From an uncultured bacterium (GTDB lineage Bacteria > SAR324 > NAC60-12): DNA of 38,961 nt. Numbering within the stretch: position 1 is the first letter of the stretch; each line of letters starts with the position of its first letter. The stretch covers positions 1 through 38,961 of the forward strand of contig CAXGMD010000025.1 of assembly GCA_964010765.1 (NCBI GenBank). The letters are read 5' to 3'. Shown piece by piece: positions 510 through 38,961 of the stretch. The position numbers were made by a program, and so were the translations under genes. Below the pieces are notes generated by a model. The model worked only from the letters and a program-made list of their open reading frames with translations. It was not told where the DNA came from and did no database searches.

Positions 510-592
510 GATTGCTTCTCCAATTAGTGTTAGTGGTTCAAGCGAGGTGCAGAAGATTTATATTTTGGATAGGAATTGTCAAGTTTCGCATG

Positions 593-1825: not shown

Positions 1826-1888
1826 AAATCTACCTGTGAAGTTTAGGATTCTTTGAATTTTAGCCCTAAATTGCCGAATGAAAGTTAA

Positions 1889-3433: not shown

Positions 3434-3526
3434 AAAAGCACTTTGGGAGCGTCATGACCTGAATTCTTTGAATGTTCCAAGCCTATTTTCAGAAGCATGA
3501 TACACTAGCGAAATCATCAAGTTTTC

Positions 3527-4900: not shown

Positions 4901-4941
4901 GTTAGTTCCTGTTAGTTATGAAATTGTGGAATGCATCTGCT

Positions 4942-8749: not shown

Positions 8750-8775
8750 GAGTTTTGAATATGTGTAGAATGAGT

Positions 8776-8799
8776 AGGGGAGCTCATTAGAACCCCCCT
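8776..8799 (-). terminator. Stem-loop between the SBP and permease genes (mRNA stabiliser or partial terminator)
   Basis: Minus strand AGGGGGGTTC-TAAT-GAGCTCCCCT, 10-bp stem including G-U pairs, just after the SBP stop; a common position in ABC operons. Confidence 0.55.
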
Positions 8800-8827
8800 T
8801 TATCACTTCAGTTGGTAGGGAAAGCGA

Positions 8828-10951: not shown

Positions 10952-11030
10952 AACTTTCCTCCGTATTTACGGTGAGAAGGACCCCATTGGGGTTCAGAAT
11001 ACTTGACAGCTTCCTGCCAAGCGGGATTCA

Positions 11031-11050
11031 GCAGTCGCACCGGCGGCTGC
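11031..11050. other. Inverted repeat immediately after the GH4 gene stop
   Basis: GCAGTCGC-ACCG-GCGGCTGC, 8-bp imperfect stem. Confidence 0.4.
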
Positions 11051-12529: not shown

Positions 12530-12552
12530 GTGCTACTTTTTCAGTTGATTGT

Positions 12553-13467
12553 TTAAACCTTGGGGTCCGTTAAATCTCGGTTCATTTTGCGCCAGTGGTA
12601 CTTGCGGCTACCATTGTAAAAGGGTTTTTCCTCAGCGGAAAGGGTTCCTAAGAATTCAGGATTTGGCTCGTAATCAAACCAAGGCTGAAAGAAATCCGGA
12701 GTGTATCCACCAAGAATCAGCAAGCGATCTTTCCCCGATCGATTGATTCCACCCGCGTGAATCGTTGATTCGAAAAAAAGTAAGGTGGAGCCTGCCGGCG
12801 CAACAACTTGATGTCGCAACTCAGGTCTTTCCCTGACAGCATCAATCAACAAGCTCTCCGAAATATCAACCATTTTGTGACTGCCAGCGATCACGGTTGT
12901 TCCTCCGTCATCTGGCCCCAGGTCAGTGAGGTTTGTTAGGCATTTTACAAACGGGCAGTGGAACAAACCTTTGCTGCGATAACTGAAAGCTGGGTCGAAT
13001 CCTCGATGCCATCCATAGTTTTCTGAGACCGGTTGATTCAGGTCTCGCCTGCGAATGTGGGCATCGGACTGCTCTAGTCGCACACTGCCACCCACTGCAT
13101 CTTCAGCAAGTCCTACGATCTTTGGGTTCGTAACATATTCGCGGAAACATGATGCAAGATGAGGGAGATTGTCAATCCGGAAGAAATCCCAAGTGGTTGA
13201 GGTAAAGAACATATGAGACTTGGGAGGTACTTTGTCCCGTTGATAATCCTGTTCAAACTGTAGAATTGTCTCCACCAATAAATCAACCTCGGCCTTTGCG
13301 AGTACCTTCTCTAAAACAACATAACCGTAGATATCCAGATGTATCCGTTCAGCAGGAGTTAATGAAAAAGTTTTGTTCGCAGAGGTCGGTGAGATAGCAG
13401 GAGTCAGATTTGGCAAATGTCCACCTTCAGGCGAACGACCAACATCTTTGGTGGGTATTTCAGGCAT
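12553..13467 (-). CDS. PhyH-family Fe(II)/2-oxoglutarate enzyme with HxG motif (putative radical halogenase-type site)
   Basis: GYVVLEKVL, LTDLGPDDGGTTVIAGSHK, H154-R-G156, distal H237 and R248. Confidence 0.85.
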   Translation of the reverse strand: MPEIPTKDVGRSPEGGHLPNLTPAISPTSANKTFSLTPAERIHLDIYGYVVLEKVLAKAEVDLLVETILQFEQDYQRDKVPPKSHMFFTSTTWDFFRIDNLPHLASCFREYVTNPKIVGLAEDAVGGSVRLEQSDAHIRRRDLNQPVSENYGWHRGFDPAFSYRSKGLFHCPFVKCLTNLTDLGPDDGGTTVIAGSHKMVDISESLLIDAVRERPELRHQVVAPAGSTLLFFESTIHAGGINRSGKDRLLILGGYTPDFFQPWFDYEPNPEFLGTLSAEEKPFYNGSRKYHWRKMNRDLTDPKV

Positions 13468-14323
13468 GAGTCTTTTCAGGCTGATTTATTTCAGAATCCC
13501 ACATTGTATAGGGAGCGACTATCTGCCTGCGTTCTGGCGTGAGTCGTTTCAATAGTTCCTTTGAGGGTCGGTACTGGTGTCGGAAATTTCCCCAGGAAGG
13601 TCCATATCGATAAACAGCAATTCGTCGAATACCACTGTTACTGCGCTTGGCTGAACCATGACAGATTCCATCCACAAAAACTAGCACATCTCCGGCTGCC
13701 ATCTGGATCTCCATAGCTCCTTCGATCAAATCACCGAAACCTTCGCTACGCATTGCCACTTTCTTTAAGTCTGGATGCTCAAAATTGGACTTGTGGCTGC
13801 CAGGAACAAGGACAGTTCCACCATCACCTGGACCTATGTTTGTCAGGGCAATCAGAGCGTTCACTTGACCACACATGAAGCGCCCCCCATGGAAGCGATA
13901 TTGATTTCTGAGGATTGAAGGATAGCCACCTGAGTGCATCCCGATTGCTTTGCCAATACCCCGCAAATTTACAAAATTCTCATCAATGAATAGTGGTCCA
14001 TGCGCATGATCGAATGTTCCCTGCCCCCCTACAAATAACTTCATGTGTTCAATCCAAGCAGGATGATCTATCAGCCTCTCAAAGGGTTCACCAGCCTCAT
14101 AGATTTGCTGCAGATTCAGACCTGATTGTCCATCATCTTTGTAGTCGTGGAAATGTACATTTCCGTATAGCGTTCCAGGTTCTTGTTCAGGAATTGAGTC
14201 AATGCATTGATTCAGCGCCTTCACTTCTTCAGTGCTCAATGCATTTCTCAGAACGATATACCCGTTAAGGTCAAAGAAATAAACGTCGCGAGGAGAAATT
14301 GGGCCGTAATCGAATCCTTTCAT
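13460..14323 (-). CDS. PhyH-family Fe(II)/2-oxoglutarate enzyme with HxG motif (putative radical halogenase-type site)
   Basis: FDLNGYIVLRNALS, LTNIGPGDGGTVLVPGSHK, H130-S-G132, distal H222 and R233; 8-nt overlap with the next gene. Confidence 0.85.
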   Translation of the reverse strand: MKGFDYGPISPRDVYFFDLNGYIVLRNALSTEEVKALNQCIDSIPEQEPGTLYGNVHFHDYKDDGQSGLNLQQIYEAGEPFERLIDHPAWIEHMKLFVGGQGTFDHAHGPLFIDENFVNLRGIGKAIGMHSGGYPSILRNQYRFHGGRFMCGQVNALIALTNIGPGDGGTVLVPGSHKSNFEHPDLKKVAMRSEGFGDLIEGAMEIQMAAGDVLVFVDGICHGSAKRSNSGIRRIAVYRYGPSWGNFRHQYRPSKELLKRLTPERRQIVAPYTMWDSEINQPEKTHA

Positions 14324-14336
14324 AATACCTTTGGCT

Positions 14337-15650
14337 TCAATTCAAAGGAGGAATCATGTCTCCATGAGCCTCCAGTAGGTCATCCACAAGATTCCAGATT
14401 TCATCAAGTGAGAGTTCTGCAGCCGTGTGTGGGTCCAGCATGGCGGCTTGATAAACGTAGTCCTTTTTCCCTGTCAAGGCAGCTTCTACTGTCAATTGCT
14501 GAACGTTGACATTGGTCATCATCACTGCTGCTAGTTGCGGTGGCAATTCTCCTACATTGATCGGCTGGATACCGTTCTTGTCGATGTAGCAAGGCACTTC
14601 GACGGAGAGATTCTGGGGGAGGTTGCTGATCAGTCCTTGATTAGCCACATTCCCATTGATCACAGTCGATTCACCGTTTTCCAGCGCATTGATGATGGCG
14701 GCAGCGTATTCATGACTCTGACAAACCTCCATTACTGCCGAATCATCTTCCATTTCCAGTCTTGTTTTTTCCCAACCAGCAATTTGATTTTCGCAGCGTC
14801 GGATATATTCATCCAGAGGTACATTGAAGCGTTCGATCAAGTCTGGGCGATCTCGCTTAATAAACCAGGGGGTGTATTCGGCAAAGTGTTCACTGGATTC
14901 AGTGACAAAGTACCCTAAGCGACGCAACATCTCATAACGAACTCTGTTTCCATCTGGCATGCGTCCTTGCGCTTCAATTTCCCTCAGACGTGGGTAGAGA
15001 TCTTCGACTCCGCTTGCGGTTTTCTTCTCGAAACGAAGATAGAAGGACATATGATTGATGCCTGCACAGAAATAGTTGATGTCCTTGATGTTTTCTCCCA
15101 AGTCTTTGGCCAGTTCTTCCGCGGTTCCCTGCACACTATGACACAGTCCAACCATTGTTAATTCGGGGGTGAGGCGATTGATTGCCATGCAGAGCATCAC
15201 CATGGGGTTGACATAATTTAGCATGGTGGCAGCCGGAGAAACTTCTTCCATGTCCTCCAGAATTCCTTTGATCACCGGAATGGTCCGAAGCGCACGCATG
15301 ATCCCCCCTACACCTAGTGTGTCGGCGATGGTTTGGCGAAGTCCATATTTCTTGGGAATCTCGAAGTCAATCACTGTGCTTGGTTGATATCCTCCTACCT
15401 GCATCATCAGAATGACATAATCCGCATCACGCAGCGCTTTCCGGCGATCTGTCGTCGCAGTTACCCGATTATTCAGACCCAAGGTGCGAGCCATTCTTTG
15501 AGTAACGATCTCAGAAGTCTTCAGACGACTCAGATCGATATCGTGTAAAGCGATTTCTGAGTCTTTTAGTCCAGGAGTGAGCAGGACATCTCCCACAAGT
15601 CGGCGCGCAAAAACAGTACTGCCAGCACCGATTAGACAAATCTTGGCCAT
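14337..15650 (-). CDS. melA: GH4 alpha-galactosidase (E. coli MelA-like)
   Basis: KICLIGAGSTVF, QTIADTLGVGG, NYVNPM, GLCHSVQGT, GINHM, TESSEHFAEYTPWFIK, DPHTAAEL. Confidence 0.88.
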   Translation of the reverse strand: MAKICLIGAGSTVFARRLVGDVLLTPGLKDSEIALHDIDLSRLKTSEIVTQRMARTLGLNNRVTATTDRRKALRDADYVILMMQVGGYQPSTVIDFEIPKKYGLRQTIADTLGVGGIMRALRTIPVIKGILEDMEEVSPAATMLNYVNPMVMLCMAINRLTPELTMVGLCHSVQGTAEELAKDLGENIKDINYFCAGINHMSFYLRFEKKTASGVEDLYPRLREIEAQGRMPDGNRVRYEMLRRLGYFVTESSEHFAEYTPWFIKRDRPDLIERFNVPLDEYIRRCENQIAGWEKTRLEMEDDSAVMEVCQSHEYAAAIINALENGESTVINGNVANQGLISNLPQNLSVEVPCYIDKNGIQPINVGELPPQLAAVMMTNVNVQQLTVEAALTGKKDYVYQAAMLDPHTAAELSLDEIWNLVDDLLEAHGDMIPPLN

Positions 15651-23050: not shown

Positions 23051-24406
23051 ATGGAGCTTGCGGAACTCCGTAACCAATTTTTGGATTTCCTCCAACAGCG
23101 ATGCTGTGGCAAACGCCAAGAGAAGATGGGCCTGGAGTATGAAACTTTTGCGGCGCTACCATCTGATGAAGGGAAATGGAAGTCATTGCCAATCAGTGGG
23201 GATGTCAGTATTGGGACGCTCTTGCTCAAAATGGCGCAATTGAGTAGCCAGGGAGCGCAGCCTTGGGAACTACACTACGAAGGTGAACTGCTTCTAGGTT
23301 TGTTGCATTCCAGTGGTCAGAACATTTCGATTGAACCAGGCGGTCAGGTTGAACTATCGGATTCTCCCAGGAAGGACTTGAGCGAGGTGGCTCAAGCAGT
23401 CACTGTTCATATTCAACAACTCACACAGGCGCTCAGCGATTGGGGAGGATTACCTTTGTTTTTAGGGGCTCATCCCTACCTAACTCCAGATGATCTGCCT
23501 TTGCTTGACAAGAAACGCTATCGAATCATGTACTCGACCATGAAAGAAGTGGATACTCATGGTCAATGGATGATGAAAGCGACAAGTGGTGTTCAGGTCA
23601 GCCTTGATTATCAGTCACTGGAAGATTTGGAGCGGAAGTTTGTGATTCTCAACAGGCTTACTCCATTCTTGACGGCAATTTTTGCAAACAGCCCAATCCT
23701 AGTGGGAGAACCAAGTGGCTATCGCTCCTATCGGGGCAGAATTTGGCAAAATACGGATCCCTACCGAACTGGTTTACCTCTTAGTTTCCTGAGTAAGAAA
23801 TTCAGCTTGGTGGACTACATCGAGTGGGCTTTGGACGTCCGTCCATATCACCTCTACCGTGATGGAGAGGTGGTTCAGCCTGGTCCCTACACCTTCCGAC
23901 AATTGATGAAGAAGGAAACGTCACTTGAAATGAATCAAGAAGACTGGCTCACTCATCTGGGTATGCTCTTCCCTGAGGTGCGGATCAAGAGAATTATGGA
24001 GTTGCGCTGTATGGACACGCAACAGCCTCAGGATGTGATGGCGGTTCCAGCATTGCTGCAAGCTCTGACCTACAATGAGAGTGTGCTGACAGAATTAGAA
24101 GGTTTCTTAATGGACATCCCAGCTGAACTATTTCCTGAGCTTCGAAAAACTGCTTGCAAGGAAGGACTGACTGGTGAGGTTGGACCGGTAAGATTCAACA
24201 AGTTGGCAATTAAGATTATGGAATCTGCGCTATCCCATATGGATTCTGTAAATCAAGCGAATTGGCTGGAACCATTTTTCGATAGATACACAAAGCAGGG
24301 TCTTTCCCCAGCTGACTTGGTCCTAGAGCGTTACCAATCCGCGGATTCGTTTGATCGCTGGCTAACTCAAGAACTCTTTCTGCATAGTCAGAGCACGTTA
24401 AATTAA
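23051..24406 (+). CDS. gshA: Glutamate--cysteine ligase, GCS2 (plant/alphaproteobacterial-like) type
   Basis: GLEYE, SIEPGGQVELS, GVQVSLDY, AIFANSP, R..IW..TDP.RTG, LFPEVR, ELRCMD; adjacent to glutathione synthetase. Confidence 0.88.
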   Translation: MELAELRNQFLDFLQQRCCGKRQEKMGLEYETFAALPSDEGKWKSLPISGDVSIGTLLLKMAQLSSQGAQPWELHYEGELLLGLLHSSGQNISIEPGGQVELSDSPRKDLSEVAQAVTVHIQQLTQALSDWGGLPLFLGAHPYLTPDDLPLLDKKRYRIMYSTMKEVDTHGQWMMKATSGVQVSLDYQSLEDLERKFVILNRLTPFLTAIFANSPILVGEPSGYRSYRGRIWQNTDPYRTGLPLSFLSKKFSLVDYIEWALDVRPYHLYRDGEVVQPGPYTFRQLMKKETSLEMNQEDWLTHLGMLFPEVRIKRIMELRCMDTQQPQDVMAVPALLQALTYNESVLTELEGFLMDIPAELFPELRKTACKEGLTGEVGPVRFNKLAIKIMESALSHMDSVNQANWLEPFFDRYTKQGLSPADLVLERYQSADSFDRWLTQELFLHSQSTLN

Positions 24407-24409
24407 TCT

Positions 24410-25753
24410 ATGACTCCAGAGGAATTACGGAATATTATTGATCGTGCTCATTACTTTGGATTGCTTCAGAAAAATCTAGACGGACAACTCGTTCACGCTC
24501 CATTCTCGCTTACGCCCTATCAACTACCATCTTCCCTGATCTCACAACTTCAAATACACACACAGTGGTCAAGCCTGCTTTTTTGGAAGGTTGCTCAAAA
24601 TTCCGATTTTCTACGAGAAATTTTAGAGCCTACTGCAAAAGTAGACGAATTTGTACGATTCCTACTCTCCTTGATCCCGCAGGAAAAACGACAGGACCAA
24701 CAGCTCCTCATCAATCGAAATGATTTTCTCTTCGAAAGAAAAGAAAATGGAGAACTTCAGCCCCTACAAGTCGAATTCAATACCATTTCAGCGAGCTTTG
24801 CTCATCTCTCGGGTAGGGTCACAGCCCTTCACCAGCAACTTCAGCAAGAAAATATTCTGAAAGCAGCTCCCCTCCCTCATGATGCCATCGCGGGCTTTGC
24901 AAGTGGAATCAAAGAGACAATTGAGAATCTTGGTTGGCGGGATTCAGCTTTACTGATTTTGGTCCAGCCTAAAGAGAGAAACTGGTTTGATCAGATGGGG
25001 CTATTTGCTGCACTGAGTCAGCGTGGTGTGAAGGTTGTTCGGGCGACATTGGCAGAAGTCCATCAGAAAGGGAAACTCAAGAATGGAGACCTCTGGGTTG
25101 GTCCACAACGAATTGGGGTTGTTTACTTTAGAGCCGGATATGCACCGGGGGATCTTCCTGATGAGGAAAGCCGTTCAGCCAGAAGAATGTTGGAAGCCTC
25201 CACTGCAGTCCTGGTTCCGGAAGCCTCCATGCAACTGGCTGGTACTAAGAAGATTCAACAAGTGTTAGCTGATTACAGCATCTTGAGTGAATTTGTCCCC
25301 GAGTCCGTCGCGGATCAATTGAAGGCTTATTTTGCAATGATGTTTGGCTTAGAAGAAGAGGTAGAAGGTAGACCAGCTAGAGAATTTTTGGCAGAAAATG
25401 CAGAGCAATACGTCCTCAAACCTCAAAGAGAAGGAGGCGGCAACAATGTCTATGGAGCAGAAATTAAAGATTTTTTGACTTCTTTACCTACGAGTGAAGA
25501 CAGGGCTTGGATTGCAATGAAACGTATTGAAGCGGAGACGGCCGAAAGTCTGCTAGTGGTTCAGGAACAGGCTCAGTCTCGCCAAAGCATCAGTGAGCTT
25601 GGAATCTTTGGATTGCTACGAGCACAATCAGGTGATCTAAGAATGAATATGCCAGTGGGACATTTGGTTCGGACAAAGGCTTCTAATGTCAACGAGGGTG
25701 GGGTAGTTGCGGGTTATGCATGCCTCAACAGCCTAACCTCAACTAATCAATAA
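24410..25753 (+). CDS. gshB: Glutathione synthetase, eukaryotic type
   Basis: 447 aa. HAPFSLTP, QVEFNTISASF, ERN.FDQ, VYFRAGY.P, QLAGTKKIQQ, VLKPQREGGGNN, SELGIFG, GHLVRTK....EGGVVAG. Confidence 0.92.
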   Translation: MTPEELRNIIDRAHYFGLLQKNLDGQLVHAPFSLTPYQLPSSLISQLQIHTQWSSLLFWKVAQNSDFLREILEPTAKVDEFVRFLLSLIPQEKRQDQQLLINRNDFLFERKENGELQPLQVEFNTISASFAHLSGRVTALHQQLQQENILKAAPLPHDAIAGFASGIKETIENLGWRDSALLILVQPKERNWFDQMGLFAALSQRGVKVVRATLAEVHQKGKLKNGDLWVGPQRIGVVYFRAGYAPGDLPDEESRSARRMLEASTAVLVPEASMQLAGTKKIQQVLADYSILSEFVPESVADQLKAYFAMMFGLEEEVEGRPAREFLAENAEQYVLKPQREGGGNNVYGAEIKDFLTSLPTSEDRAWIAMKRIEAETAESLLVVQEQAQSRQSISELGIFGLLRAQSGDLRMNMPVGHLVRTKASNVNEGGVVAGYACLNSLTSTNQ

Positions 25754-26628: not shown

Positions 26629-27555
26629 ATGGAAAGGATTGCGCAATCGTTACGACTATTGGGTGATGAGACCCGTTTGAGGCTGCTGAGGTTGCTTTCT
26701 GAGCAGGCCTTGAATGTCAGTGAACTTACCCAGATCTTGGGCCTGGCTCAATCTGGTATTTCACGGCATTTGAGCCATTTGCGCAAGATGGGTGTGATTC
26801 AGGAACGCAAAGAAGGGGTATGGTCCTATTATCAGTTGACTCCATTGATTGACCAGGATAATGATCTCAGACTCTTTGCTCAGTATTTACATCAACAACT
26901 CGAAGAACTTGATGACCCGCACCATGACCAAGTTCGGTTACAGGAAATTTTACATCAACGCCGACTGGGAGGCCCCGGACTCAACGAGAAACTATTAGAA
27001 CCCGGGCAATCCTGGTCTGCCTGGTCCCGGTTGCTTGGACGTTTGCTTGGTACTCTTAAGCCTAATCTGCATATTGCAGATCTTGGCTGTGGGGATGGGA
27101 CTCTGACCCTGGAACTTGCTAGATGTGCTGAGAAAGTAATCGGAGTGGATTTTGAAAGTGAACCGCTCCGGGTTGCCCGACAAAATTTGCTTTTATCCGG
27201 CCTCCAAAATGTAGAATGGATTCAGGAACCCTTAGAAAAATTGTCGCTCACCGATGAATCAGTAGATGTAGTGGTGTTTTCTCAGGCACTTCACCATCTC
27301 AAGGAACCAGAGGTTGGTTTGCAGCAAGCCCATCGAATTTGCCGCAAAGGAGGTTGTGTCCTGATAGCTGAATTGGAGAGTCACAACCAAGGGTGGGTGC
27401 GTGATAAGTTGCAGCATGCCTGGCAGGGCTTTTCAGCTCAGGATCTCCACAAAATGTTGAAGAAATCTGGCTGGCAACAGATCCATCTTGAATCCTTACC
27501 GCCGGCACGAGAAAAAATTTTTCAAGTTCTGCTCGGGACAGCTCAAAAGCAATGA
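26629..27555 (+). CDS. ArsR-family regulator fused to a class I SAM-methyltransferase domain (SahR-like)
   Basis: N-terminal D.TRLRLL..L...LNVSEL..ILG..QS.ISRHL HTH; C-terminal DLGCGDG and QALHH. Confidence 0.88.
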   Translation: MERIAQSLRLLGDETRLRLLRLLSEQALNVSELTQILGLAQSGISRHLSHLRKMGVIQERKEGVWSYYQLTPLIDQDNDLRLFAQYLHQQLEELDDPHHDQVRLQEILHQRRLGGPGLNEKLLEPGQSWSAWSRLLGRLLGTLKPNLHIADLGCGDGTLTLELARCAEKVIGVDFESEPLRVARQNLLLSGLQNVEWIQEPLEKLSLTDESVDVVVFSQALHHLKEPEVGLQQAHRICRKGGCVLIAELESHNQGWVRDKLQHAWQGFSAQDLHKMLKKSGWQQIHLESLPPAREKIFQVLLGTAQKQ

Positions 27556-28840: not shown

Positions 28841-28865
28841 AATTTTGTTTGAAGGAGAGTCTTTC

Positions 28866-30404
28866 ATGCTGATTGGGATTCCAAGAGAAATTCTTCCTGA
28901 AGAGCGACGAGTTGCTATTGCTCCGGGGCACGTACCCAACCTCCAAAAACTTGGTTATGACCTATTGGTTGAATCAGGTGCAGGGGTGAAAGCCAACTTC
29001 CCTGATTCCCTCTACGTCGAAACAGGAGCCAAAATAGCTGGACGGACTGCGGAAGTTTGGAAAAAAGCAGATATTATTCTGAAGATCCGAGCACCTGAAG
29101 CCAAAGAAATTGAAAAACTACATGAAGGCCAAATTTTGATCTGCATGCTCCAGCCAGCCCAACAAAAGGTGTTATTGGAGGAGCTAGCAAGCAAACAAGT
29201 GACTGCCTTGGCTATGGATGCAATTCCTCGCATTTCGCGGGCTCAGTCGATGGATGTCCTCAGCTCAATGGCAAACATCTCAGGATATCGAGCTGTCGTT
29301 GAGGCAGCTCAGCATTTTGGGAGATTCTTTACCGGCCAAATCACGGCAGCAGGTCGAATTCCTCCGGCAAAAGTATTGGTCATTGGTGCTGGAGTGGCAG
29401 GCTTGGCGGCAATTGGAGCTTCCCATAGCCTTGGAGCTATCGTCAGAGCGTTTGATACGAGAGTTGCGGTTCGTGACGAAGTCAAGAGTCTCGGAGGGGA
29501 ATTTCTCGAATTGGATCTAGAGGAAGATGGTACAGGTGCAGGAGGCTATGCAAAGCAGATGAGTGAGGCCTTTATCAAGGCAGAGATGGAGTTGTTCGCT
29601 CAGCAGGCTGCAGAAGTCGATATCATCATTACTACGGCAGCGATCCCGGGCCGTCCGTCACCAAAACTAATCACTACAGAGATGGTTCGCTCGATGAAGC
29701 CGGGTTCAGTGATTGTCGATTTGGCAGCTGAAGGTGGAGGTAATTGCGAACTAACTGAATCTGGCAAAGTGGTCAAGCAAATGGGAGTAACCATTGTTGG
29801 CAAAACCAATCTGCCAAGTGAGTTACCAACGCAGGCTAGTCAGCTATACGGAAACAACGTACTAAAATTATTGAATCATCTGAAAGGCGAGAACCTTGTT
29901 GAGTTGAATTTTGAAGATGAAATCACCCGCGCAATCACCGTTACTCGTAATGGAGAGGTGACATGGGAGCCACCAAGACCTCCGGTACCGAAAAAACCCA
30001 CTCAACCGGAAACTGCTCCAGCTCAAAAAGCTGAATTGGCTGAAACAGAAAATGTAAAACCAGCTTGGCAAAAGATTTTTCATCCATACGTCGCTTATGC
30101 GTTAGCGGCACTCTTGTGTGTGATGCTAGGTTTCGTTGGAACGGAAGAGTTTCTGGGTCATCTCTTTGTTTTCATGCTTTCCTGTTTTGTTGGCTACATG
30201 GTGGTTTGGAATGTCACACCCTCTCTGCAAACTCCATTGATGAGTCTGACAAATGCGATCAGTGGAATCATTGTGCTTGGTGGAATGATGCATATTGCTG
30301 GAGATCATCCAATGCTGGCAGGTGCGGCAATTCTGATTGCTACGATAAATATTGCGGGTGGCTTCCTCGTCACCCAACGGATGCTTGGCATGTTCAAGAA
30401 ATGA
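28866..30404 (+). CDS. pntA: NAD(P) transhydrogenase alpha subunit
   Basis: [64 protein letters not shown] before ATG 28866. Confidence 0.97.
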
Positions 30405-30454
30405 CTTCATCACTAAATTGAAAATCTGACACTCAATTAGGAGTTATAAACATC

Positions 30455-31837
30455 ATGCCCTCAGGGATAATTAGTTTAGCCTTTATTGGTGCGAGTATTT
30501 TATTCATCTTGAGCATCAGCGGCTTGTCACAACAGGAAACTGCTCAGCGGGGAAATCGTCTGGGCATGTTGGGGATGGCAATAGCGATTATTGCGACTCT
30601 CTGGTTGCCAGAGGCCGGTCAATATTTTTGGTTAGTCCTTTTACTAGCTGGGGGCACTCTCATTGGCTGGCAGTTGGCCACCCGAGTAGAAATGACCCAA
30701 ATGCCGGAGATGGTTGCGATTCTCAACAGTTTTGGAGGACTTGCGGCAACCTTTGTCGGATTTGTCAGTTATTTAGAGACCGTGGCTGGACCGGGATCAA
30801 CCATCCATATCTTTGAGGTTTTTCTTGGGGTCTTCATTGGAACCTACACATTTACAGGTTCTGTGGTCGCCTTTGGAAAGCTGAGCGCTCGGATTGGCAG
30901 CCGACCGGTGATGTTGCCCGGCCGACATCTCATTAACTTGGCAGGTATAGGAGTCAGTTTTCTTCTAGCAATTTGGTTGATGGTGGGTGAACCAGGAAAT
31001 CATGCCTTTGCCCTATTTTTGGTAGCGATGATCTCAGGCGCCATTGGGATTCATATGATCATGGCGATCGGTGGTGCGGATATGCCTGTCGTAGTCTCCA
31101 TGCTAAATAGCTACTCCGGTTGGTCAGCGGCCATGGCAGGATTCATGTTGGGCAATAATCTGTTGCTAGTTACTGGAGCCCTAGTGGGAAGCAGTGGAGC
31201 AATCCTAAGCTACATCATGTGCAAGGGAATGAATCGGCCTTTCATCAATGTAATTGCTGGTGGATGGGGAGTTGAAGAGGGCACGGTGCTAGATTCCTCT
31301 GAGGTTCAGGGAGAGGCAATTCCGATTCAGGCGGAGGAAGTGGCGGAACAACTTCGCAATGCCAGAAGTGTCGTCATTGTCCCAGGTTATGGGATGGCGG
31401 TTGCCCAAGCCCAGCACGTTGTGAGAGAGATTGTTGCCTTCCTCAGAGAAATGGACGTGGACGTGCGATTTGCAATCCACCCAGTTGCAGGTCGCCTCCC
31501 AGGCCACATGAATGTCTTGTTGGCTGAAGCGAACGTGCCTTATGACATAGTTTTAGAAATGGATGAGATCAATCCAGAATTACCAAACACAGATCTTGCT
31601 CTGGTGATCGGTGCAAATGATATTGTCAACCCAGGAGCCGAAGAGAATCCAGGCAGTCCAATTTACGGGATGCCCGTGCTTGAAGTGTGGAAAGCGGGGA
31701 TGGTGATTGCTCTCAAACGGAGCATGGCAACTGGATACTCTGGAGTAGAGAACCCACTGTATTTCCGTGAAAATACTCGGATGCTCTTTGGTGATGCCAA
31801 GTCAAGCCTGACACAAGTTGCTGGATTTCTTCGCTAA
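30455..31837 (+). CDS. pntB: NAD(P) transhydrogenase beta subunit
   Basis: [66 protein letters not shown]. Confidence 0.97.
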
Positions 31838-31846
31838 CCTTAGAAT

Positions 31847-32317
31847 CTAGAAGTATAGTGAAACGTCCCGGTGATCAGCCTGGCAAACCGAAACCTCTTT
31901 AGCCAACTCCACACTCAATCATGGTTGTGAGCGTAAGCCAACTGTAGGTTTCAGCGCCTCTGCATATTCCCGAATTGATGGCAGCATATTCTGTTTGGCG
32001 TCTTGCCTCCAAGCAATCTCTGAGGCAAGAACACTCAAGCTTTCATCCACAAATTCCCGAGCTTTCTGCCGGTCTGCATCGGCCTTTTGGAACCAGCGTC
32101 TTGCTTTACTCAGTGGTGATTTGATTCCATAACTGCCAGGCACCTCACCAATTAGCGATTTTGCTTGCTTGAGAGCTTCTGTAACATCTTTTGAGTTTGA
32201 GGTTTCGAGTTCCGGTAGAAGTCCTTCCAGAACAGATCTCAATTGACCAATTCCAGAGTCGTCCTGAAACTTTTCGTTCAATAGCGAATAGATTCCCGCC
32301 AAGCTTACGCACGAGCA
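31847..32317 (-). pseudogene. 3' remnant of a larger gene, probably the soluble C-terminal domain of a long TRAP large permease, with an internal stop
   Basis: The frame continues through TGA 31921-31919 as LSVELAKEVSVCQADHRDVSLYF to TAG 31849-31847. No good start or RBS. The EIAWR...GLR.Q..L......C...HRD.SL.F pattern is recalled from marine TRAP permease C-termini (not verified by search). Confidence 0.6.
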
Positions 32318-32374
32318 TTAAATGAAAAAGTTTCTGTTCGACCTTTTCAAAAAATAGTTTTTAGAAATCAGTGC

Positions 32375-33241
32375 TCAGATCCCAAAAATTGAAACAAGCC
32401 CCGCTTTCTCCTTAAAATCGTCCATTTGCTTCTGACTTGGGCGCTTTCCTCTGTTTTCAGCTGCTTTCAGAACCAGCGGTAAGAGATTCACATCCCCCAC
32501 AGAATTCAGAAAGAGTCCTTCATGGGACAACAACCAGTGAACGGCTCGCTGTATATCCTTTTCATCCTGAAGTGGTTGGTACCAGGTGTTGTGGGTTTTA
32601 TCGACCCCAGCTGCCCAAGGCCCACGAGCAATACTCTTGATGGTTTGAACGGCTACATCTCGTTCCTTGCAAAGGTTCCAGGTGTCTTTGAAGTCACTCG
32701 CATAAGGTTCGTGTTGAGAGGCGAAATAGTTCCAGGGCATCAACACCGAATCAAAATTAAAGCGCCCCAGACTCCTTTTGTGCATGGTGGCAACGCTCCA
32801 ACTGTGTCCAGTTACCCCGATGAACTTGACAAGCCCTGCCTCCCGAGCTTCGATGCAAGCCTCTAAAGCTCCCCCAGCTGATAAGGCTTGCTCCCATTCA
32901 TCCGGGTGAAAAAGCGCATGAAGTTGGATCAAATCGACATGATCTGTGCAGAGTCGGTCCAGTGAACGATGTATCTCCTCTTTGGCTCCTGCATAGTCAC
33001 GAATCCCTGTCTTGGTAGCGAGAAAAAATTGCTTTCGATATTTCTTCATCCAAGGCCCAATTCGCAGTTCCGAATCACCATAGCTAGCAGCGGTGTCAAT
33101 GTGGTTGACCCCGTATTCGAGCAGCAAGTCCAAAACTTTGTCAGCTGTGCTTTGGTCAACGGGGCCCAATGCAGCGCCACCAAACAGCACAGCGCTACTT
33201 TGGTGCCCAGTCCTACCGAATTTTCTTCTTTCAATCGTCAT
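32375..33241 (-). CDS. Aldo/keto reductase family protein linked to larBCE
   Basis: [44 protein letters not shown]; 18 nt downstream of larE. Confidence 0.9.
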
Positions 33242-33259
33242 GATGCCTTCATTATTGGA

Positions 33260-34099
33260 TTATTGTTGAATGGGCTCTTCTGAGAGATTCCCTCTCACAA
33301 AAGCCCGACCTGGTTGGTAAGGTTTTGGATCAATCACTACGGAATTGATGTGGTCTGAAGCCTCTAGAACTCTAGCTCTCAAGTTATGGACAAGCCCATG
33401 ATGCTTTTCCATCACACTCGGATTCTCAACTTCCACACGCATTTCCTGTTGGTGGATGCGACAACGAACGACAGCTAGGCTAGTTTGTTCCCGAATCCAT
33501 TCTTCAGTTTGATCAATCAGTCGAAGTAAATCTGCCTGTACTTTTGTTCCAGTGTAGAGCCGACTTGCTAGACACGGTGCGGCAGGTAGATCTGCAAATG
33601 GCAGTGCTGATAGACGGGCGATTTCACGAAGTTGTGGTTTTGTGATGGATGCTTCCACGAAGGGATGCCTCACTCCTGCCTGTTTTGCAGCCTCTAAGCC
33701 GGGCCGAAATTCATCGAGATCATCTAGATTGGTACCACTCAGCAAAACGCTTGATGAATCTAACTGCTCTCGAATTTCTCTCAGCGTGCGGTAAAGATTT
33801 TTCTTACAATGAAAGCAACGGTTTACTGGATTTGCCAAGTATTCGGGATCATCAAATTCACCTGCATTGACCAGTTGAAGTTGCCATTTCTCTTGATGGG
33901 CCCAACGTTTGACTCTTGTCGAAGCCGCAGCAGGCACTGCGGGTCCAACAGCATGCACAACAATAGTCTCCTCAGGTTTTTGACGATGGGCCAGAGTCGC
34001 TAGTAACATACTATCAACTCCCCCGCTGCAGGCCACCAAGCGAGGACTGGTAGCCTCCAAGACTGTGTTGAGTCGCTTTAAATCCTCGAACATCGTCAT
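33260..34099 (-). CDS. larE: LarE ATP-dependent sulfur insertase (NPN cofactor biosynthesis)
   Basis: PP-loop SGGVDS, NP.NRCFHCK, GTNLDDL..FRPGL.AA, PCLASR. ATG 34099 overlaps the larC stop (ATGA). Confidence 0.9.
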   Translation of the reverse strand: MTMFEDLKRLNTVLEATSPRLVACSGGVDSMLLATLAHRQKPEETIVVHAVGPAVPAAASTRVKRWAHQEKWQLQLVNAGEFDDPEYLANPVNRCFHCKKNLYRTLREIREQLDSSSVLLSGTNLDDLDEFRPGLEAAKQAGVRHPFVEASITKPQLREIARLSALPFADLPAAPCLASRLYTGTKVQADLLRLIDQTEEWIREQTSLAVVRCRIHQQEMRVEVENPSVMEKHHGLVHNLRARVLEASDHINSVVIDPKPYQPGRAFVRGNLSEEPIQQ

Positions 34100-35274
34100 T
34101 TTTGATCCCCAGACGCCAACAACTTTGCCCCCCAGGCTTGACGAACCTGAGCCTCGATCAACACCGGAGGTTGGCCAGCCCGATCTGCAGCAGTGACAAT
34201 GTCCCGATGCTCTGGTTTCCATTGCCAGCACTCTTTACCAAGAAACCCTGATCTCATTGAAATATTTCCCCATTCTGTGGAGAAGTTTTCATGCCTTGAA
34301 TCCAACTTGAGACGTTTTACAGTTTGAACACGGACCCCAAAACTACCGGATTCCTTCAAAAGAATTTCCAGCAGTAAATCTCGATCTTTCTCCAAGCAAA
34401 GTAGCACCAATTGCTGACCAATCCGGCCCATTTTACCAAAAACTGGGCTAGCCCAACCGTCCAACGCTCCAGCAGTTAGAGCTTTTGCGATACAGGAAGC
34501 TAATAGTTGGGGACTGAGGTCATCAACGTTTGCTTCCAATCTTATGATCTCCTCGGCTCTTAGCTTTTGCCCACTTAGCTGTAATTCCAGCACATTGGGA
34601 TGAGGTAGATCCTTGGTTCCACAGCCAACTCCTTTTCTGGGTTGAAGAAGTGGAGAAAGATCTGAAAAACATTCTACAAATCTTTGGAGAAAAACTGCAC
34701 CAGTTGGAGTAACAAGTTCCGAAGAAACAGGAATTCTTTGCAGTGGAATATCTCCTAATAGTTCTCTGACAGCCGGAACGGGGAGATCGCATTCTCCATG
34801 AGAAAATCTAACTTTCCCCACTCCTTCAACAATGGTGCTGGCTGTGACGCTCTCAATTTCAAAATATTCCATGGCGACTGCAATGGAGACAATGTCAATG
34901 ATGGTATCGACAGCGCCAACTTCATGAAAGTGAACTTCCTCAATTGGTACTTGATGGACTGATGATTCGGCATGACCCAATGATTGAAATAAATCTTCGG
35001 CGATGGACTTTGCTTTTGGGGAAAGCTTTGACTTGCCAAGAATTTCAAGAATATCTGTGAGGTGTCGATGATGGTGTTGTTCATCGTATGCAACCTCGAA
35101 CTGAATGGCTGGAACCCCAAGTTTTTCAACGCTTTTCTGAGAAATTTCCCATCCTCCGAGATCCAACTTTTCCAGTTGTTCCTGGAGGGAATCCAAGGGC
35201 AATCCCAAGCCCAAGAAACCACCAACGAGCATATCCCCGCTGATCCCTGAAGTGGAATGAAGATGAAGGTGCAT
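34096..35274 (-). CDS. larC: LarC nickel insertase (NPN cofactor biosynthesis)
   Basis: SGISGDM, His-rich QHHHRH, VHFHEVGAVD, ELVTPTGA, EANVDD, KPE; single uninterrupted ORF. Confidence 0.93.
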   Translation of the reverse strand: MHLHLHSTSGISGDMLVGGFLGLGLPLDSLQEQLEKLDLGGWEISQKSVEKLGVPAIQFEVAYDEQHHHRHLTDILEILGKSKLSPKAKSIAEDLFQSLGHAESSVHQVPIEEVHFHEVGAVDTIIDIVSIAVAMEYFEIESVTASTIVEGVGKVRFSHGECDLPVPAVRELLGDIPLQRIPVSSELVTPTGAVFLQRFVECFSDLSPLLQPRKGVGCGTKDLPHPNVLELQLSGQKLRAEEIIRLEANVDDLSPQLLASCIAKALTAGALDGWASPVFGKMGRIGQQLVLLCLEKDRDLLLEILLKESGSFGVRVQTVKRLKLDSRHENFSTEWGNISMRSGFLGKECWQWKPEHRDIVTAADRAGQPPVLIEAQVRQAWGAKLLASGDQK

Positions 35275-36026
35275 CAGTTCCTGTTGATCAAACTAGCTAG
35301 ATATCCTGCGCGGAAGCCAGCATCGATATTTACGCAGCAAAGGTTAGAAGCACAACTGTTGAGCATGCCCAACAAAGCCGTGACACCACCAAAAGAGGTG
35401 CCATAGCCAACTGAGGTGGGTATGCCGATTACTGGGCAGGAAACCAGTCCGGCTACTACTGTTGGAAGAGCAGCTTCCATCCCTGCAGCAACGACAATCA
35501 CCCTAGCTTTGATCAAACGCTCGTGTCTGGACACTATCCGTTGTAAACCCGCAACCCCCAAGTCTTCCATCACCTGGATTCTGCTTCCGGTGAGTCTGGC
35601 TGTGTGAGCGGCTTCTAGCAAGACCGGACGATCCGTGGTTCCCGCGCTGACCAACAAGACATCGCCCTTGAGTTTTTCTTCCTCAGTTTGGTCGAGGTAA
35701 AGACACTTGGAGGCTTCGCAATAGTCGCATCCATCAAGGTCTCTTTTAACAGCTTTGTAGTGAGCTGCGTTGGCCCTGGTTCCAAGAAGCGAGGCGTTTG
35801 GTGTTTCACGATTGAGGGCAGTAAAGATCTCAGCAACTTGTTCAGGGGTTTTGCCTTCACAATAAACAACCTCAGAAAAACCATTGCGGAGCTGTCGATG
35901 ATGATCGACTTCTGCAAAGCCTAAATTCTCTACCTGAAAGGTTCTTAGTTTTTCCAGGGCAGAGTCAGGAGATTGGCTTCCCTCTGCAACAGATTCAAGC
36001 AGTTGAAGTAGTTGCGAAGAATTCAT
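35274..36026 (-). CDS. larB: LarB NaAD carboxylase/hydrolase (NPN cofactor biosynthesis)
   Basis: VDHHRQLRNGFSEVVYCEGKT, AGTTD, DLGVAGL.R, AGMEAALP, PTSVGYG, MLNSC. Start set to ATG 36026 to avoid overlap with the SDR. Confidence 0.93.
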   Translation of the reverse strand: MNSSQLLQLLESVAEGSQSPDSALEKLRTFQVENLGFAEVDHHRQLRNGFSEVVYCEGKTPEQVAEIFTALNRETPNASLLGTRANAAHYKAVKRDLDGCDYCEASKCLYLDQTEEEKLKGDVLLVSAGTTDRPVLLEAAHTARLTGSRIQVMEDLGVAGLQRIVSRHERLIKARVIVVAAGMEAALPTVVAGLVSCPVIGIPTSVGYGTSFGGVTALLGMLNSCASNLCCVNIDAGFRAGYLASLINRN

Positions 36027-36063
36027 TCCGATCTCTTCGAAAAGTCTTCTTCCTTGAGATTTC

Positions 36064-36831
36064 TCAGACTTGGCAAGCCAATCCTCCATCTACGAAGATC
36101 ACGTTCCCATTTACATAAGAAGCTGCCTTGGAGAGCAGAAAGACAGCGGCTCCACCGAGTTCATCGGGATCACCCCAGCGCTGCATTGGAGTTCTGCCTG
36201 AAACAAAGGCGGTGAATTCGGAATCATTGACGAGAGCGGTATTCATCTCTGTGGCAAAGAAGCCGGGTGCAATGCCATTGCATCGAATGCCTTGCCCCCC
36301 CAATTCAACCGCCAGTGCCTTGGTCAAGCCGACCACCCCGGCTTTGCTGGCGGTGTAGGCGGAGATTGTCTTACGAGCCTGGGGGCCCATGATCGAAGCA
36401 ATATTGACAATAGATCCCGATCCTTGAACTTGCATCAAGCGGACGGCTTCCCGAGAAAGTAACCAACTCGCCCGGAGGTTCGTGTCCATCACTCGGTCAA
36501 AATCTTCTAGTTCAAACTCGGTCAGTGGACGGCGATGTTGAATTCCAGCATTGTTGATCAAGCCATCCAATTTACCGTGCTGTTCCCGAATTTTTCCAAA
36601 AGCAGCAAGCACCTCCTCGTCATTGACGACATCAAAAATATAGTATTCGGCATTCTGACCAAGCTCTTGCAGATATTGCTTATGTTCTTTGAGCAAGTTC
36701 TCATCTCGGCCGTGCAGCAGGACGGTGGCTCCTGCTTCTGCAACTGCCTTGGCAATTGACCACCCCAGTCCCCTGCTGGACCCAGTGATCAAAACAATTT
36801 GGTTTTCAAGTGAAAACAATGAAGAGTTCAT
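36064..36831 (-). CDS. SDR oxidoreductase, gluconate 5-dehydrogenase-like
   Basis: TGSSRGLG, NNAGIQHR.P, YTASK, NGIAPGFFATEMN.AL, RTPMQRWG, VDGG. Confidence 0.88.
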   Translation of the reverse strand: MNSSLFSLENQIVLITGSSRGLGWSIAKAVAEAGATVLLHGRDENLLKEHKQYLQELGQNAEYYIFDVVNDEEVLAAFGKIREQHGKLDGLINNAGIQHRRPLTEFELEDFDRVMDTNLRASWLLSREAVRLMQVQGSGSIVNIASIMGPQARKTISAYTASKAGVVGLTKALAVELGGQGIRCNGIAPGFFATEMNTALVNDSEFTAFVSGRTPMQRWGDPDELGGAAVFLLSKAASYVNGNVIFVDGGLACQV

Positions 36832-36840
36832 AGGCAGTTA

Positions 36841-36864
36841 ATTATTATGAAAATTTATAATAAT
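36841..36864. promoter_or_regulatory. AT-rich inverted repeat upstream of the SDR-lar genes
   Basis: ATTATTAT-N8-ATAATAAT within a 45-nt spacer; overlaps TTGATT-16-CATAAT on the minus strand. Confidence 0.4.
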
Positions 36865-36876
36865 AAATCAAAAAAG

Positions 36877-38322
36877 TCACGGACGTAGCTCCTCTGAGTG
36901 GAGCACTAACATTTTACGAACTTGCATGTCATGCATTGTGAAGGGGATGCCTCCGACTGCCAAGCCAGATTGTTTCAAGCCTGCAAATGGCATCCAGTCC
37001 ACGCGAAATGCAGTATGCTCATTGACCATTACAGCAGATGCGTTGAGACGTCTGTAGACACGCATTGCAGTGTCAATGCTTCTAGTAAAGACAGAAGCCT
37101 GAAAGGAAAAGGGAACGTCGTTGGCCCGAGCGATTGCAGCATCTACATTCTCAACGCTGTAGACGCAGACTACTGGTCCAAAGATCTCTGCCTGGCTCAC
37201 TTTGCAGTCACTTGGTGGATTCAGCAGGACGGTGGCTTCAAAACATGAATCTGAAATCCGCTTCCCGCCACAGAACACTTCTGCTCCAGCTGCTACTGCC
37301 TCGTTGACCCAAGCCTCTACCCGATCGGTCTCTCGGTGTCGAATCAGTGGGCCTACTTCAGTGGCTGCATCTGTGGGGTCGCCAACGATCAAGTTTTTGG
37401 CTTTTTCCGCTATTTTTTGAGCTACTTCTCTAGCAATACTGCTATCAGCAAAGACTCTTTGTACTGATACACACACTTGCCCAGCGTGATAGAATCCCCC
37501 CTTGGTGAGTGAGGGCACCAATCGCTCTAAATCTGCATCAGCGGCAACTACAACAGGAGCCGCCCCCCCATGTTCAAGAGCACAGCGTGTTCCCGGAGCA
37601 ACTTGAGATCGTAGTGACCAGCCCACACGAGCGCTACCAATGAAGGAGAAGAAGGCAACACGGGAATCGGTGACCAATTTCGTGGCATTTTCTAAATTTT
37701 TAACGATCAGTGATTGGCACCATTCTTCAGGTAACCCAGCCTCCCGAAGGATGTTGATGAAACGGAAGCAGGAAAGGGGTGTGTCCTCTGCAGGTTTTAT
37801 GATCACTGGACATCCTGTTGCTACAGCAGGTCCGACCTGGTGTACAATCAAGTTCAGTGGATGGTTGAAGGCACTGACTGCTACGACGATACCAACGGGT
37901 TCGTGTCTCGTTACAGCGAACTTGCCCTCTGAAGCTGGATTCAGATTCATTGGGATTTCCTCCCCTGCCTGAGTTCTCAGAACCTCAATGCAGTTTCTCA
38001 CCCCATCAATTGCCCTTGCTACTTCTGCCCTGGAGTCAATCAACGGTTTACCACCTTCTCGGGCAGCTTCGACGGCTAATTCCTCTGCTCTTTCTGACAT
38101 GATAGAAGCGGTTTTTTCAAGAATTTCCATGCGTTTGGCGGGCTTTAGCCAGAGATCGCGATCTCGGTACAATCGATCTGCGGTGGAGAGGGCTAACTCT
38201 ACTGCATTAGCATCCGCTGCAGTTACGGTGGCAATCAAAGTCCCATCGTAGGGAGCGGTAACCTCAATTTGGCCATCATCGCTTTGTGCTCCGGGGATTT
38301 GTAGGTTGAAGTGCTGGCTCAT
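36877..38322 (-). CDS. NAD(P)-dependent aldehyde dehydrogenase
   Basis: SAFNHPLN, IKPA, FIGSARVG, LEHGGAAP, GQVCVS (catalytic Cys), EIFGPV, PFAG.K.SG; GGAG RBS. Confidence 0.93.
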   Translation of the reverse strand: MSQHFNLQIPGAQSDDGQIEVTAPYDGTLIATVTAADANAVELALSTADRLYRDRDLWLKPAKRMEILEKTASIMSERAEELAVEAAREGGKPLIDSRAEVARAIDGVRNCIEVLRTQAGEEIPMNLNPASEGKFAVTRHEPVGIVVAVSAFNHPLNLIVHQVGPAVATGCPVIIKPAEDTPLSCFRFINILREAGLPEEWCQSLIVKNLENATKLVTDSRVAFFSFIGSARVGWSLRSQVAPGTRCALEHGGAAPVVVAADADLERLVPSLTKGGFYHAGQVCVSVQRVFADSSIAREVAQKIAEKAKNLIVGDPTDAATEVGPLIRHRETDRVEAWVNEAVAAGAEVFCGGKRISDSCFEATVLLNPPSDCKVSQAEIFGPVVCVYSVENVDAAIARANDVPFSFQASVFTRSIDTAMRVYRRLNASAVMVNEHTAFRVDWMPFAGLKQSGLAVGGIPFTMHDMQVRKMLVLHSEELRP

Positions 38323-38490
38323 GCGTGTCTCCTGATCTTCTTTTCAATAATTCATAGCAAGGATGAACACTTGCTTTTGGAAAGTCCCAAGCCTCAAAAT
38401 AGGTGGTATTTGTTCATTCACTGCTTGCAATCGTTCATTCCAAGGGAAGTTTCAATCTCCAATTTCACAATCTCCTAAGAATTTACCCTC

Positions 38491-38961
38491 GTGATCGTAG
38501 AAATTGCTCTCGTTATTCCTCTTCGACAAGTCTTTGACTATAAGTGGCCTGCAGGATGGAATGGGCCCAAATTAGGGCAACGGGTTTTGGTCCCTTTTCG
38601 ACGTCAAAAAAAGTGCGGTTTGATCGTTGGCATCAAAGAAAAATCTGAATTTGACAGTGTCCGACAGATCTTAGCGTTGCTGGATGAGCATCCGATCATC
38701 AACAGAGATCTCTTGGATCTAACCAGGTGGGTTGCAGAATACTATTTCTGTGGGTGGGGAGAGGTCTTGCAGGCTGCTTTGCCAGGAGGCTTGGGAGTTC
38801 ATTTGCAAAGTGAATATTCCTGGGGATCCTCAAGACCAGACCAGAACTCAAGGCTACCAGAAAAATTTGCTGGTTTGCTAAACAGGGAGCGCTGGACAGA
38901 CCAAGAATGGAAAGAATTGAACCCCTCTGCAGCCGATGAAGAACTCCGACAGTCTTGGCTC
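38491..38961 (+). CDS. priA: Primosomal protein N' (PriA), 5' part; runs off the window
   Basis: Not in the ORF track. Translation from GTG 38491: MIVEIALVIPLRQVFDYKWP...GQRVLVPFRRQKKCGLIVG...LLDEHP...LLDLTRWVAEYYFCGWGEVLQAALP, matching the PriA 3'-DNA-binding domain. Confidence 0.88.
   Translation, partial: MIVEIALVIPLRQVFDYKWPAGWNGPKLGQRVLVPFRRQKKCGLIVGIKEKSEFDSVRQILALLDEHPIINRDLLDLTRWVAEYYFCGWGEVLQAALPGGLGVHLQSEYSWGSSRPDQNSRLPEKFAGLLNRERWTDQEWKELNPSAADEELRQSWL

Follow-up and report, generated by a model that had tools for sequence, protein, structure and literature searches.

Why does a marine bacterium encode an aldo-keto reductase (AKR) directly behind the genes that make the nickel-pincer cofactor? 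The question is raised by a 38,961-nt stretch of DNA from an uncultured SAR324 bacterium, referred to here as the window, which is the entire contig C25 of a 3.86-Mb metagenome-assembled genome (MAG) estimated to be 92% complete. A block of minus-strand genes near the end of the window encodes an aldehyde dehydrogenase (ALDH), a short-chain dehydrogenase/reductase (SDR), LarB, LarC, LarE and the AKR. [quoted passage not shown] An initial annotation of the locus proposed that the AKR is a client of this cofactor other than LarA and that it carries out hydride transfer. The analysis described below favors that proposal, since the AKR proved to be a full-length homologue of the NPMN-dependent enzyme NphT with all reported cofactor contacts kept. 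As judged from its sequence, the AKR very probably uses the nickel-pincer cofactor in place of NAD(P)H.

NphT (PDB 9YEB) is a hydride transferase from Alicyclobacillus cellulosilyticus that depends on NPMN (Semersky et al., Nat Chem 2026; PMC13524815). It has been in print since June 2026, and the suspicion in the initial annotation that a family of lar-linked AKRs might already be partly described was therefore well founded. NphT was discovered by mining loci with LarB, LarC and LarE and without any LarA at up to 20 open reading frames (ORFs) from LarC; AKRs co-occurred in 427 instances of such loci, and 798 NphT homologues carry the His/Lys motif (PMC13524815). The enzyme binds NPMN covalently, as seen from a 450-Da increase in mass by intact-protein mass spectrometry that is lost in the K200A mutant, and its H144 coordinates nickel in the 1.3 Å structure, an H144G mutant also having been made (PMC13524815). 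The cofactor cavity is capped and shorter, and no products were formed on incubation with NAD(P)(H) (PMC13524815). Isotope tracing showed that NphT shuttles hydride between sugars and aldehydes, for more than 1,600 turnovers; the activities on sugars are weak, with low kcat/KM, and were termed promiscuous (PMC13524815). Homologues may act on diverse substrates and some may bind NPAD (PMC13524815). The LarA enzymes racemize or epimerize 2-hydroxyacids within one molecule, whereas NphT moves hydride between molecules (PMC13524815). Semersky et al. was the only publication found on nickel-pincer AKRs or NphT. The terms 'SAR324' and 'Deltaproteobacteria' were not found in 12 supplementary files of that paper (six other files lay outside the search), and lar genes are not the subject of any of the papers listed for SAR324 and nickel, as judged by their titles or the starts of abstracts. 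The idea of a nickel-pincer AKR is thus already published, and the window AKR is a further, marine member of the NphT kind.

The relationship to NphT was established by comparing the AKR with the PDB by sequence. The chain 9yeb_A (291 residues, entitled 'Oxidoreductase') matched residues 3-274 at E 2e-72, the next match being at E 1e-12, and a hand count gave 122 identical positions in 273 alignment columns (∼45% identity). In the printed alignment the window residue number equals the NphT number plus 2. The D/Y/K/H tetrad, which the initial annotation had recognized, is present as D49, Y54, K77 and H108, identical to D47, Y52, K75 and H106 of NphT. Also identical are T144, H146, I201 and K202 (T142, H144, I199 and K200 in NphT) and W220, Y221 and G249 (W218, Y219 and G248), and the backbone contacts G248 and A20/A21 of NphT have their counterparts in G249 and G22/A23. 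H146 lies within the string GVTGHS, which aligns with GITGHG of NphT. By this correspondence Lys202 is probably the covalent tether for NPMN, and His146 probably a nickel ligand.

Conservation of these positions extends well beyond the window. An alignment of 17 homologues, 57-83% identical and drawn from SAR324, Alpha- and Gammaproteobacteria and Chloroflexota, showed D49, Y54, K77, H108, T144, H146, I201, K202, W220 and Y221 to be invariant and G249 nearly so. A search of 1.84 billion cluster representatives (clustered at 50% identity) gave 307 matches at E≤1e-30 and 2592 at E≤1e-10, and a separate homologue search listed at least 120 near-full-length relatives with 66-100% identity. Among the best 150 representatives, 61 were full-length (270-330 aa), the other 89 being set aside as fragments or fusions; of these 61, 58 retain His146 and 48 retain Lys202. 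Seven further AKR paralogues were found in the same genome by tblastn. The D/Y/K/H tetrad is retained in all seven but the His/Lys pair in none, and the corresponding sites show G-x-S-N and S-P-L, as is usual for AKRs; the one AKR in eight with the nickel-pincer motif is therefore the one encoded in the lar operon.

An AlphaFold2 (AF2) model of the AKR (pLDDT 90.1, pTM 0.89) has the (alpha/beta)8 TIM-barrel of the AKR superfamily. All matches listed by Foldseek against the PDB were AKRs (probability 1.00, TMq 0.65-0.75), the best being PA4992 (4exa/4exb) at 19-21% identity; the structure library extended to 2026-04-08 and 9YEB lay outside it, so that fold likeness was judged against the AKRs in the library. 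The initial annotation had further claimed that the C-terminus lacks the segment that binds the adenosine half of NADPH. The 16-residue string cited for this is present at residues 243-258, and loss of the segment is supported only indirectly: the PF00248 match covers profile positions 2-195 of 291, the AKR is 288 aa long where chains in the listed structures with bound NAD(P) have 288-346 aa, and the NphT cavity is capped.

Association of the AKR with the lar genes was then examined in 88 SAR324 species genomes, with the AKR counted at E≤1e-40. The AKR was found in 15, LarB in 55 and a Lar_N match in 29. All 15 AKR holders have LarB, compared with 40 of the 73 genomes that lack the AKR. AKR and larB lie within 3 kb on one contig in seven genomes, six of them from genus g1 and one from genus g9. 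Within genera g9 and g11 the AKR, LarB and LarA are present or absent together: G051 in g9 has all three and G052 and G053 (96-97% complete) have none, while G063 and G064 in g11 have all three and G065 (94% complete) has none. None of the three was found in one member of genus g1 (G062, 94% complete). In two genomes, G006 (88% complete) and G015 (93% complete), AKR and LarB are present and neither of two models detected a LarA. An attempt to read gain or loss of the block from synteny failed, as the pntB neighbor in G062 is 1.7 kb away from the end of its contig and the context differs in G052 and at the lar-AKR locus of G051 (L005).

The gene order at individual loci separates the constant from the variable parts of the block. 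Close relatives (L003, L004, L006, L012) retain the entire block, a trivial outcome at this distance. The SDR gene adjoins larB at these same-genus loci only, the ALDH gene is present in L004 and L006 and absent from L005 and L011, and a 127-aa ORF downstream of the AKR gene was found only in the same-genus loci L003 and L014. The order larB-larC-larE-AKR is kept in genus g9 (L005 of G051), where the AKR is 83%, LarC 59% and LarE 61% identical; the upstream genes there encode a DeoC/LacD-family aldolase, a GFA-family protein and a sugar-type ABC transporter, with no ALDH or SDR. In a gammaproteobacterial MAG (L011), larC-larE-larB is divergent from an operon of a LarA homologue and an AKR that is 58% identical. 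Outside the genus, then, larBCE-AKR is conserved and ALDH and SDR are not. The neighborhoods of unlinked AKR genes (L008, L009, L010, L021, L022) showed no consistent partner except frequent SDRs.

The same survey found LarB without a Lar_N match in 27 of the 88 SAR324 genomes (G086, G088, G090 and G091 among them; L015-L017, L020). Two of these have the AKR clade described here, leaving 25 'orphan' larB genomes, several of which are 96-100% complete. A neighborhood of gamma-glutamyltranspeptidase, larE-like, larB, secretin and nucleotidyltransferase genes is conserved in family f7, where no client is evident close by (the search did not extend to LarC).

The initial annotation described the locus as larBCE without larA. 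This holds for the window, as the Lar_N and LarA models match nothing on contig C25, but not for the genome, in which a search identified a single LarA homologue of 428 aa on another contig (C11:22992-24275; L002:1498-2784). The protein scores 200.3 bits with Lar_N and 349.8 bits with Ni_dep_LarA, under the cut-off of 460, and reaches no other equivalog cut-off for LarA homologues in NCBIfam. Its best PDB relative is a 'broad-substrate spectrum lactate racemase A' (9eid, E 7e-92), with which it has the strings ATGLHRP and EPHxMAGYSGGRK in common. From work on the L. plantarum enzyme we take these strings to hold the catalytic histidine and the tethering lysine. Since the Lar_N and 9eid matches are accompanied by conserved strings and no equivalog cut-off was reached, the C11 protein is regarded as a LarA-superfamily member without an assigned specificity. 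The gene is solitary, flanked by a cytidine deaminase-like gene and unknown ORFs. Since larB, larC and larE are each single-copy in the genome, one set probably feeds two clients, the AKR and the C11 LarA homologue.

Taken together, the homology to NphT makes it highly likely that the larB-larC-larE-AKR block both makes and consumes NPMN, the AKR serving as an NphT-type hydride transferase. NPMN made by LarB, LarE and LarC would be tethered as a thioamide to Lys202, as in NphT, and His146 would complete the coordination of nickel. Tyr54, acting as acid/base together with Asp49, Lys77 and His108, would handle the proton, while the pincer would take up hydride from one substrate, a carbonyl or hemiacetal, and hand it to another. 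Aldoses or aldehydes would thus undergo redox-neutral dismutation or transhydrogenation without NAD(P)H. The same larBCE set would probably also supply the C11 LarA homologue. The ALDH and SDR may act on related compounds, and the neighbors in both genera (ALDH and SDR here; the aldolase, GFA-family protein and sugar ABC transporter in g9) point to sugar-derived aldehydes.

Several observations weigh against this interpretation. The proposed chemistry is an analogy, because the physiological substrate of NphT is unknown and its kcat/KM on sugars is low. The co-occurrence counts overstate independence, because the genomes are related and six of the 15 holders come from one genus. Other points would suit an ordinary NAD(P)H-dependent AKR that merely lies beside larBCE, the cofactor genes serving the C11 LarA homologue only. 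That homologue, with its conserved cofactor motifs, could by itself justify larBCE, and a Lar_N match was present in 13 of the 15 SAR324 AKR holders (a 66-aa fragment in G016). AKR and larB are on different contigs in eight of the 15 holders. In addition, an AKR with 66% identity and the complete His/Lys motif occurs in a Chloroflexota MAG (G004, locus L010) in which neither LarB nor a C11-type LarA was found; the completeness of this MAG is unknown, and it gave only a weaker Lar_N match (E 9.8e-21). Against an ordinary AKR speaks the conservation of all other NphT contacts and of His146 and Lys202, a pair that the seven other genomic AKRs lack, and NphT, at ∼45% identity, yielded no products with NAD(P)(H). 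The Pfam match without the C-terminal third of the AKR profile and the presence of LarB in every SAR324 holder argue in the same direction. A LarA as the only client does not rescue the idea, because G006 and G015 have AKR and LarB without LarA and because the AKR residues argue for themselves. An NAD(P)H-dependent AKR is therefore considered very improbable.

Somewhat less improbable, though still with only a small chance of being correct, is that the AKR binds a nickel-pincer cofactor and catalyzes a reaction unlike that of NphT, either an intramolecular aldose-ketose or epimerase-type conversion or one that uses the NPAD form. Diverse substrates and some binding of NPAD have been envisaged for NphT homologues (PMC13524815), the identity to NphT is only ∼45%, and the weak, promiscuous sugar activities of NphT leave room for other chemistry. 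Conservation of the full tetrad and of Trp220 and Tyr221 in the substrate loop speaks for chemistry like that of NphT, and a protein of 288 aa falls in the NphT size class, which would leave little room for the AMP moiety. A non-catalytic role, in which the AKR-like protein carries or stores NPMN for delivery to the LarA homologue, would fit the joint presence of AKR and C11-type LarA in 10 of the 15 SAR324 holders and the translational coupling of the two in L011. It appears scarcely credible: a covalent thioamide tether is poorly suited to handing a cofactor over, the tetrad is invariant, NphT is a catalyst with its many turnovers, and no LarA accompanies the AKR in G006 and G015. The preferred interpretation remains a catalytic, NphT-type AKR fed by its own larBCE genes.

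A related question is whether the AKR and the C11-type LarA homologue form a two-enzyme nickel-pincer pathway on one larBCE set. As an example, the AKR may dismutate an aldose or aldehyde to an alditol and an aldonate (a 2-hydroxyacid), and the LarA homologue may then invert C2 of the aldonate. In L011 the LarA homologue ORF (8469-10004) and the AKR ORF, which begins at 10001, overlap by 4 nt, and over 424 ungapped residues the encoded LarA homologue shares 57% identity with the C11 protein; this overlap is a hint at joint action of the two nickel-pincer enzymes. A second, very divergent Lar_N-like ORF (26 bits, E 6e-6) follows directly after that AKR (L011:10345-12219, plus strand), an uncertain call in GC-rich DNA. 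C11-type LarA proteins (52-100% identity) occur in 15 SAR324 genomes, and at ≥57% identity in 10 of the 15 AKR holders, including all nine whose AKR is ≥70% identical; in an alphaproteobacterial AKR holder (G003) a C11-type LarA, 55% identical, adjoins larB. Against pairing, five SAR324 genomes have the C11-type LarA without the AKR (G055, G066, G009, G080, G007), five have the AKR without the C11-type LarA (G049, G016, G006, G015, G079), and a common need for the cofactor would by itself also yield co-occurrence. A two-enzyme pathway of this kind is judged unlikely. Pairs of this kind lie outside the view of the published pipeline, because loci with LarA within 20 ORFs of LarC were discarded (PMC13524815), and the recurrent AKR/LarA-type pairing is a testable lead that was excluded there by design.

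The genes of the block are listed in the table. The SDR-larB-larC-larE-AKR order of the initial annotation and its four junctions were reproduced exactly when larB starts at 36026 and larE at 34099: a 37-nt gap between SDR and larB, a 1-nt overlap of larB with larC, a 4-nt overlap of larC with larE and an 18-nt gap between larE and AKR. The larB ORF is open up to 36089 (35274-36089, 271 aa), a start that would overlap the SDR gene by 26 nt; the internal ATG at 36026 is where matches in relatives begin by tblastn. The larE ORF likewise extends over 33260-34231. LarB, LarC and LarE all score above their equivalog cut-offs. The two flanking oxidoreductases are less specifically assigned: the best NCBIfam match of the SDR, PRK06124 (299.6 bits), is under its cut-off of 303 and the gluconate 5-dehydrogenase-like models are also below cut-off, while the best match of the ALDH, lactaldehyde dehydrogenase (373 bits), is under a cut-off of 650. 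The 127-aa ORF matched nothing in Pfam or NCBIfam.

Genes of the lar-AKR block and the adjoining ORF (window coordinates; equivalog cut-offs in brackets)
Feature	Coordinates	Strand	Length and evidence
Aldehyde dehydrogenase (ALDH)	36877-38322	minus	481 aa; first gene of same-strand block; PF00171 418 bits
SDR oxidoreductase	36064-36831	minus	255 aa; directly upstream of larB; adh_short_C2 228.6 bits
larB, NaAD carboxylase/hydrolase	35274-36026	minus	250 aa from ATG 36026; NF033503 264.6 bits (cut-off 175)
larC, nickel insertase	34096-35274	minus	392 aa; PF01969 354.9 bits; LarC1 165.5 bits (cut-off 90) and LarC2 101.7 bits (cut-off 50) fused in one ORF
larE, ATP-dependent sulfur transferase	33260-34099	minus	279 aa from ATG 34099; TIGR00268 237.3 bits (cut-off 150)
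NphT-like AKR, predicted NPMN-dependent hydride transferase	32375-33241	minus	288 aa; PF00248 86.7 bits; 9yeb_A E 2e-72
ORF without known family	31919-32302	minus	127 aa; 72 nt downstream of AKR; unit membership uncertain

LarE has a CxxC motif (RCFHCKK) and a further cysteine in PCLASR, and aligns to the LarE-like PDB chains 8cnz, 6b2o and 5udq; in 8cnz, its best PDB match, the same three cysteines are aligned. LarE proteins with three such cysteines bind a [4Fe-4S] cluster and are catalytic instead of sacrificial. As regards nickel uptake, a NicO permease was not found in the 92% complete genome, and a single CbiM/NikM-family match was identified (C91:1146-1748).

Public RNA data were consistent with expression of the block. 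Each of 18 runs recorded as metatranscriptomic contained between 44 and 55% of the sampled sequence words of 32375-38322, and RNA-library contigs from four of these runs (four studies) covered all 30 bins of 31800-38500 with 95-100% likeness. Such contigs bridge the AKR/larE junction (X5 record 27), the larE/larC junction (X3 record 19, X2 record 11, X5 record 28), the larC/larB/SDR junctions (X1 record 5, X5 record 30) and the SDR/ALDH junction (X5 record 31, X1 record 6). They provide weak support for a single transcript, because contigs can neither show a single transcript nor exclude carry-over of DNA. Contigs of X1 and X2 leave the window sequence at 32268, between the 127-aa ORF and the AKR gene, and one X5 contig leaves it at 36820, near the SDR start. 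Related strains therefore apparently differ in the flanks, and the block may be variable. A scan of 31500-38700 for promoters and terminators was uninformative (7 and 7 sites, compared with 6.5 and 7.7 expected from shuffles), and Rfam at gathering thresholds gave no matches in the whole window.

The remainder of the window contains several other gene groups. The lar-AKR block and the plus-strand genes for the membrane NAD(P) transhydrogenase (28845-31837), pntA, to which a 4TM region is fused, and pntB, point toward each other. In neither G052 nor the lar-AKR locus of G051 (L005) are these blocks neighbors, and their adjacency is therefore probably a coincidence. A long same-strand block (1-15650, minus strand) encodes an amidohydrolase, a tryptophan-halogenase-family flavoprotein, three GH4 glycosidases, an Opp/Dpp-type ABC transporter (two SBP_bac_5 proteins, two permeases and a fused double ATPase) and two PhyH-family dioxygenases. 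A GCS2-type glutamate-cysteine ligase gene is followed by one for a eukaryote-type glutathione synthase (23051-25753, plus strand; GSH_synth_ATP 290 bits), and a 308-aa ORF (26629-27555, plus strand) joins an ArsR-type helix-turn-helix domain to an S-adenosylmethionine methyltransferase domain.

No new principle is claimed here, nickel-pincer AKRs having been established experimentally in June 2026. What the locus adds is that an abundant marine lineage has members of the family and that in some lineages its gene is built directly into the cofactor operon. Because it is wired into larBCE and flanked by ALDH and SDR genes, the window AKR is a reasonable candidate for finding the missing physiological substrate of the family.

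Compared with NphT, the window AKR is likewise an AKR TIM-barrel of ∼290 aa with the same lysine tether, nickel histidine, tetrad and other cofactor contacts, and both are encoded beside larB, larC and larE. Neither has an apparent signal peptide; window residue 3 aligns with the N-terminal methionine of NphT (chain position 4). At ∼45%, its identity to NphT exceeds the 23-35% quoted for other lar-linked examples (PMC13524815). The hosts differ, a thermophilic Firmicute for NphT and a marine SAR324-type bacterium here, as do the surroundings: the window gene lies inside the lar operon, 18 nt after larE and with ALDH and SDR upstream, whereas NphT has genes for a 5-deoxy-glucuronate isomerase, a beta-galactosidase, an arabinose repressor and a fucose isomerase in its neighborhood. 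The window genome also has a LarA homologue. Canonical AKRs that depend on NAD(P)H (for example AKR11B 1PZ1, AKR11C1 1YNP/1YNQ, the L-galactose dehydrogenases 7SMI/7SVQ/9W6Y and Tas 1LQA) have the same fold and the same tetrad but are only 17-23% identical to the window AKR and lack the His/Lys pair. LarA (5HUQ of L. plantarum and the broad-spectrum LarA 9EID/9EIA of ACS Catal 2025, PMC11851776), conversely, uses the same cofactor from LarB, LarC and LarE, with a lysine thioamide tether and a histidine nickel ligand, in an entirely different fold from that of the NphT-type AKRs.

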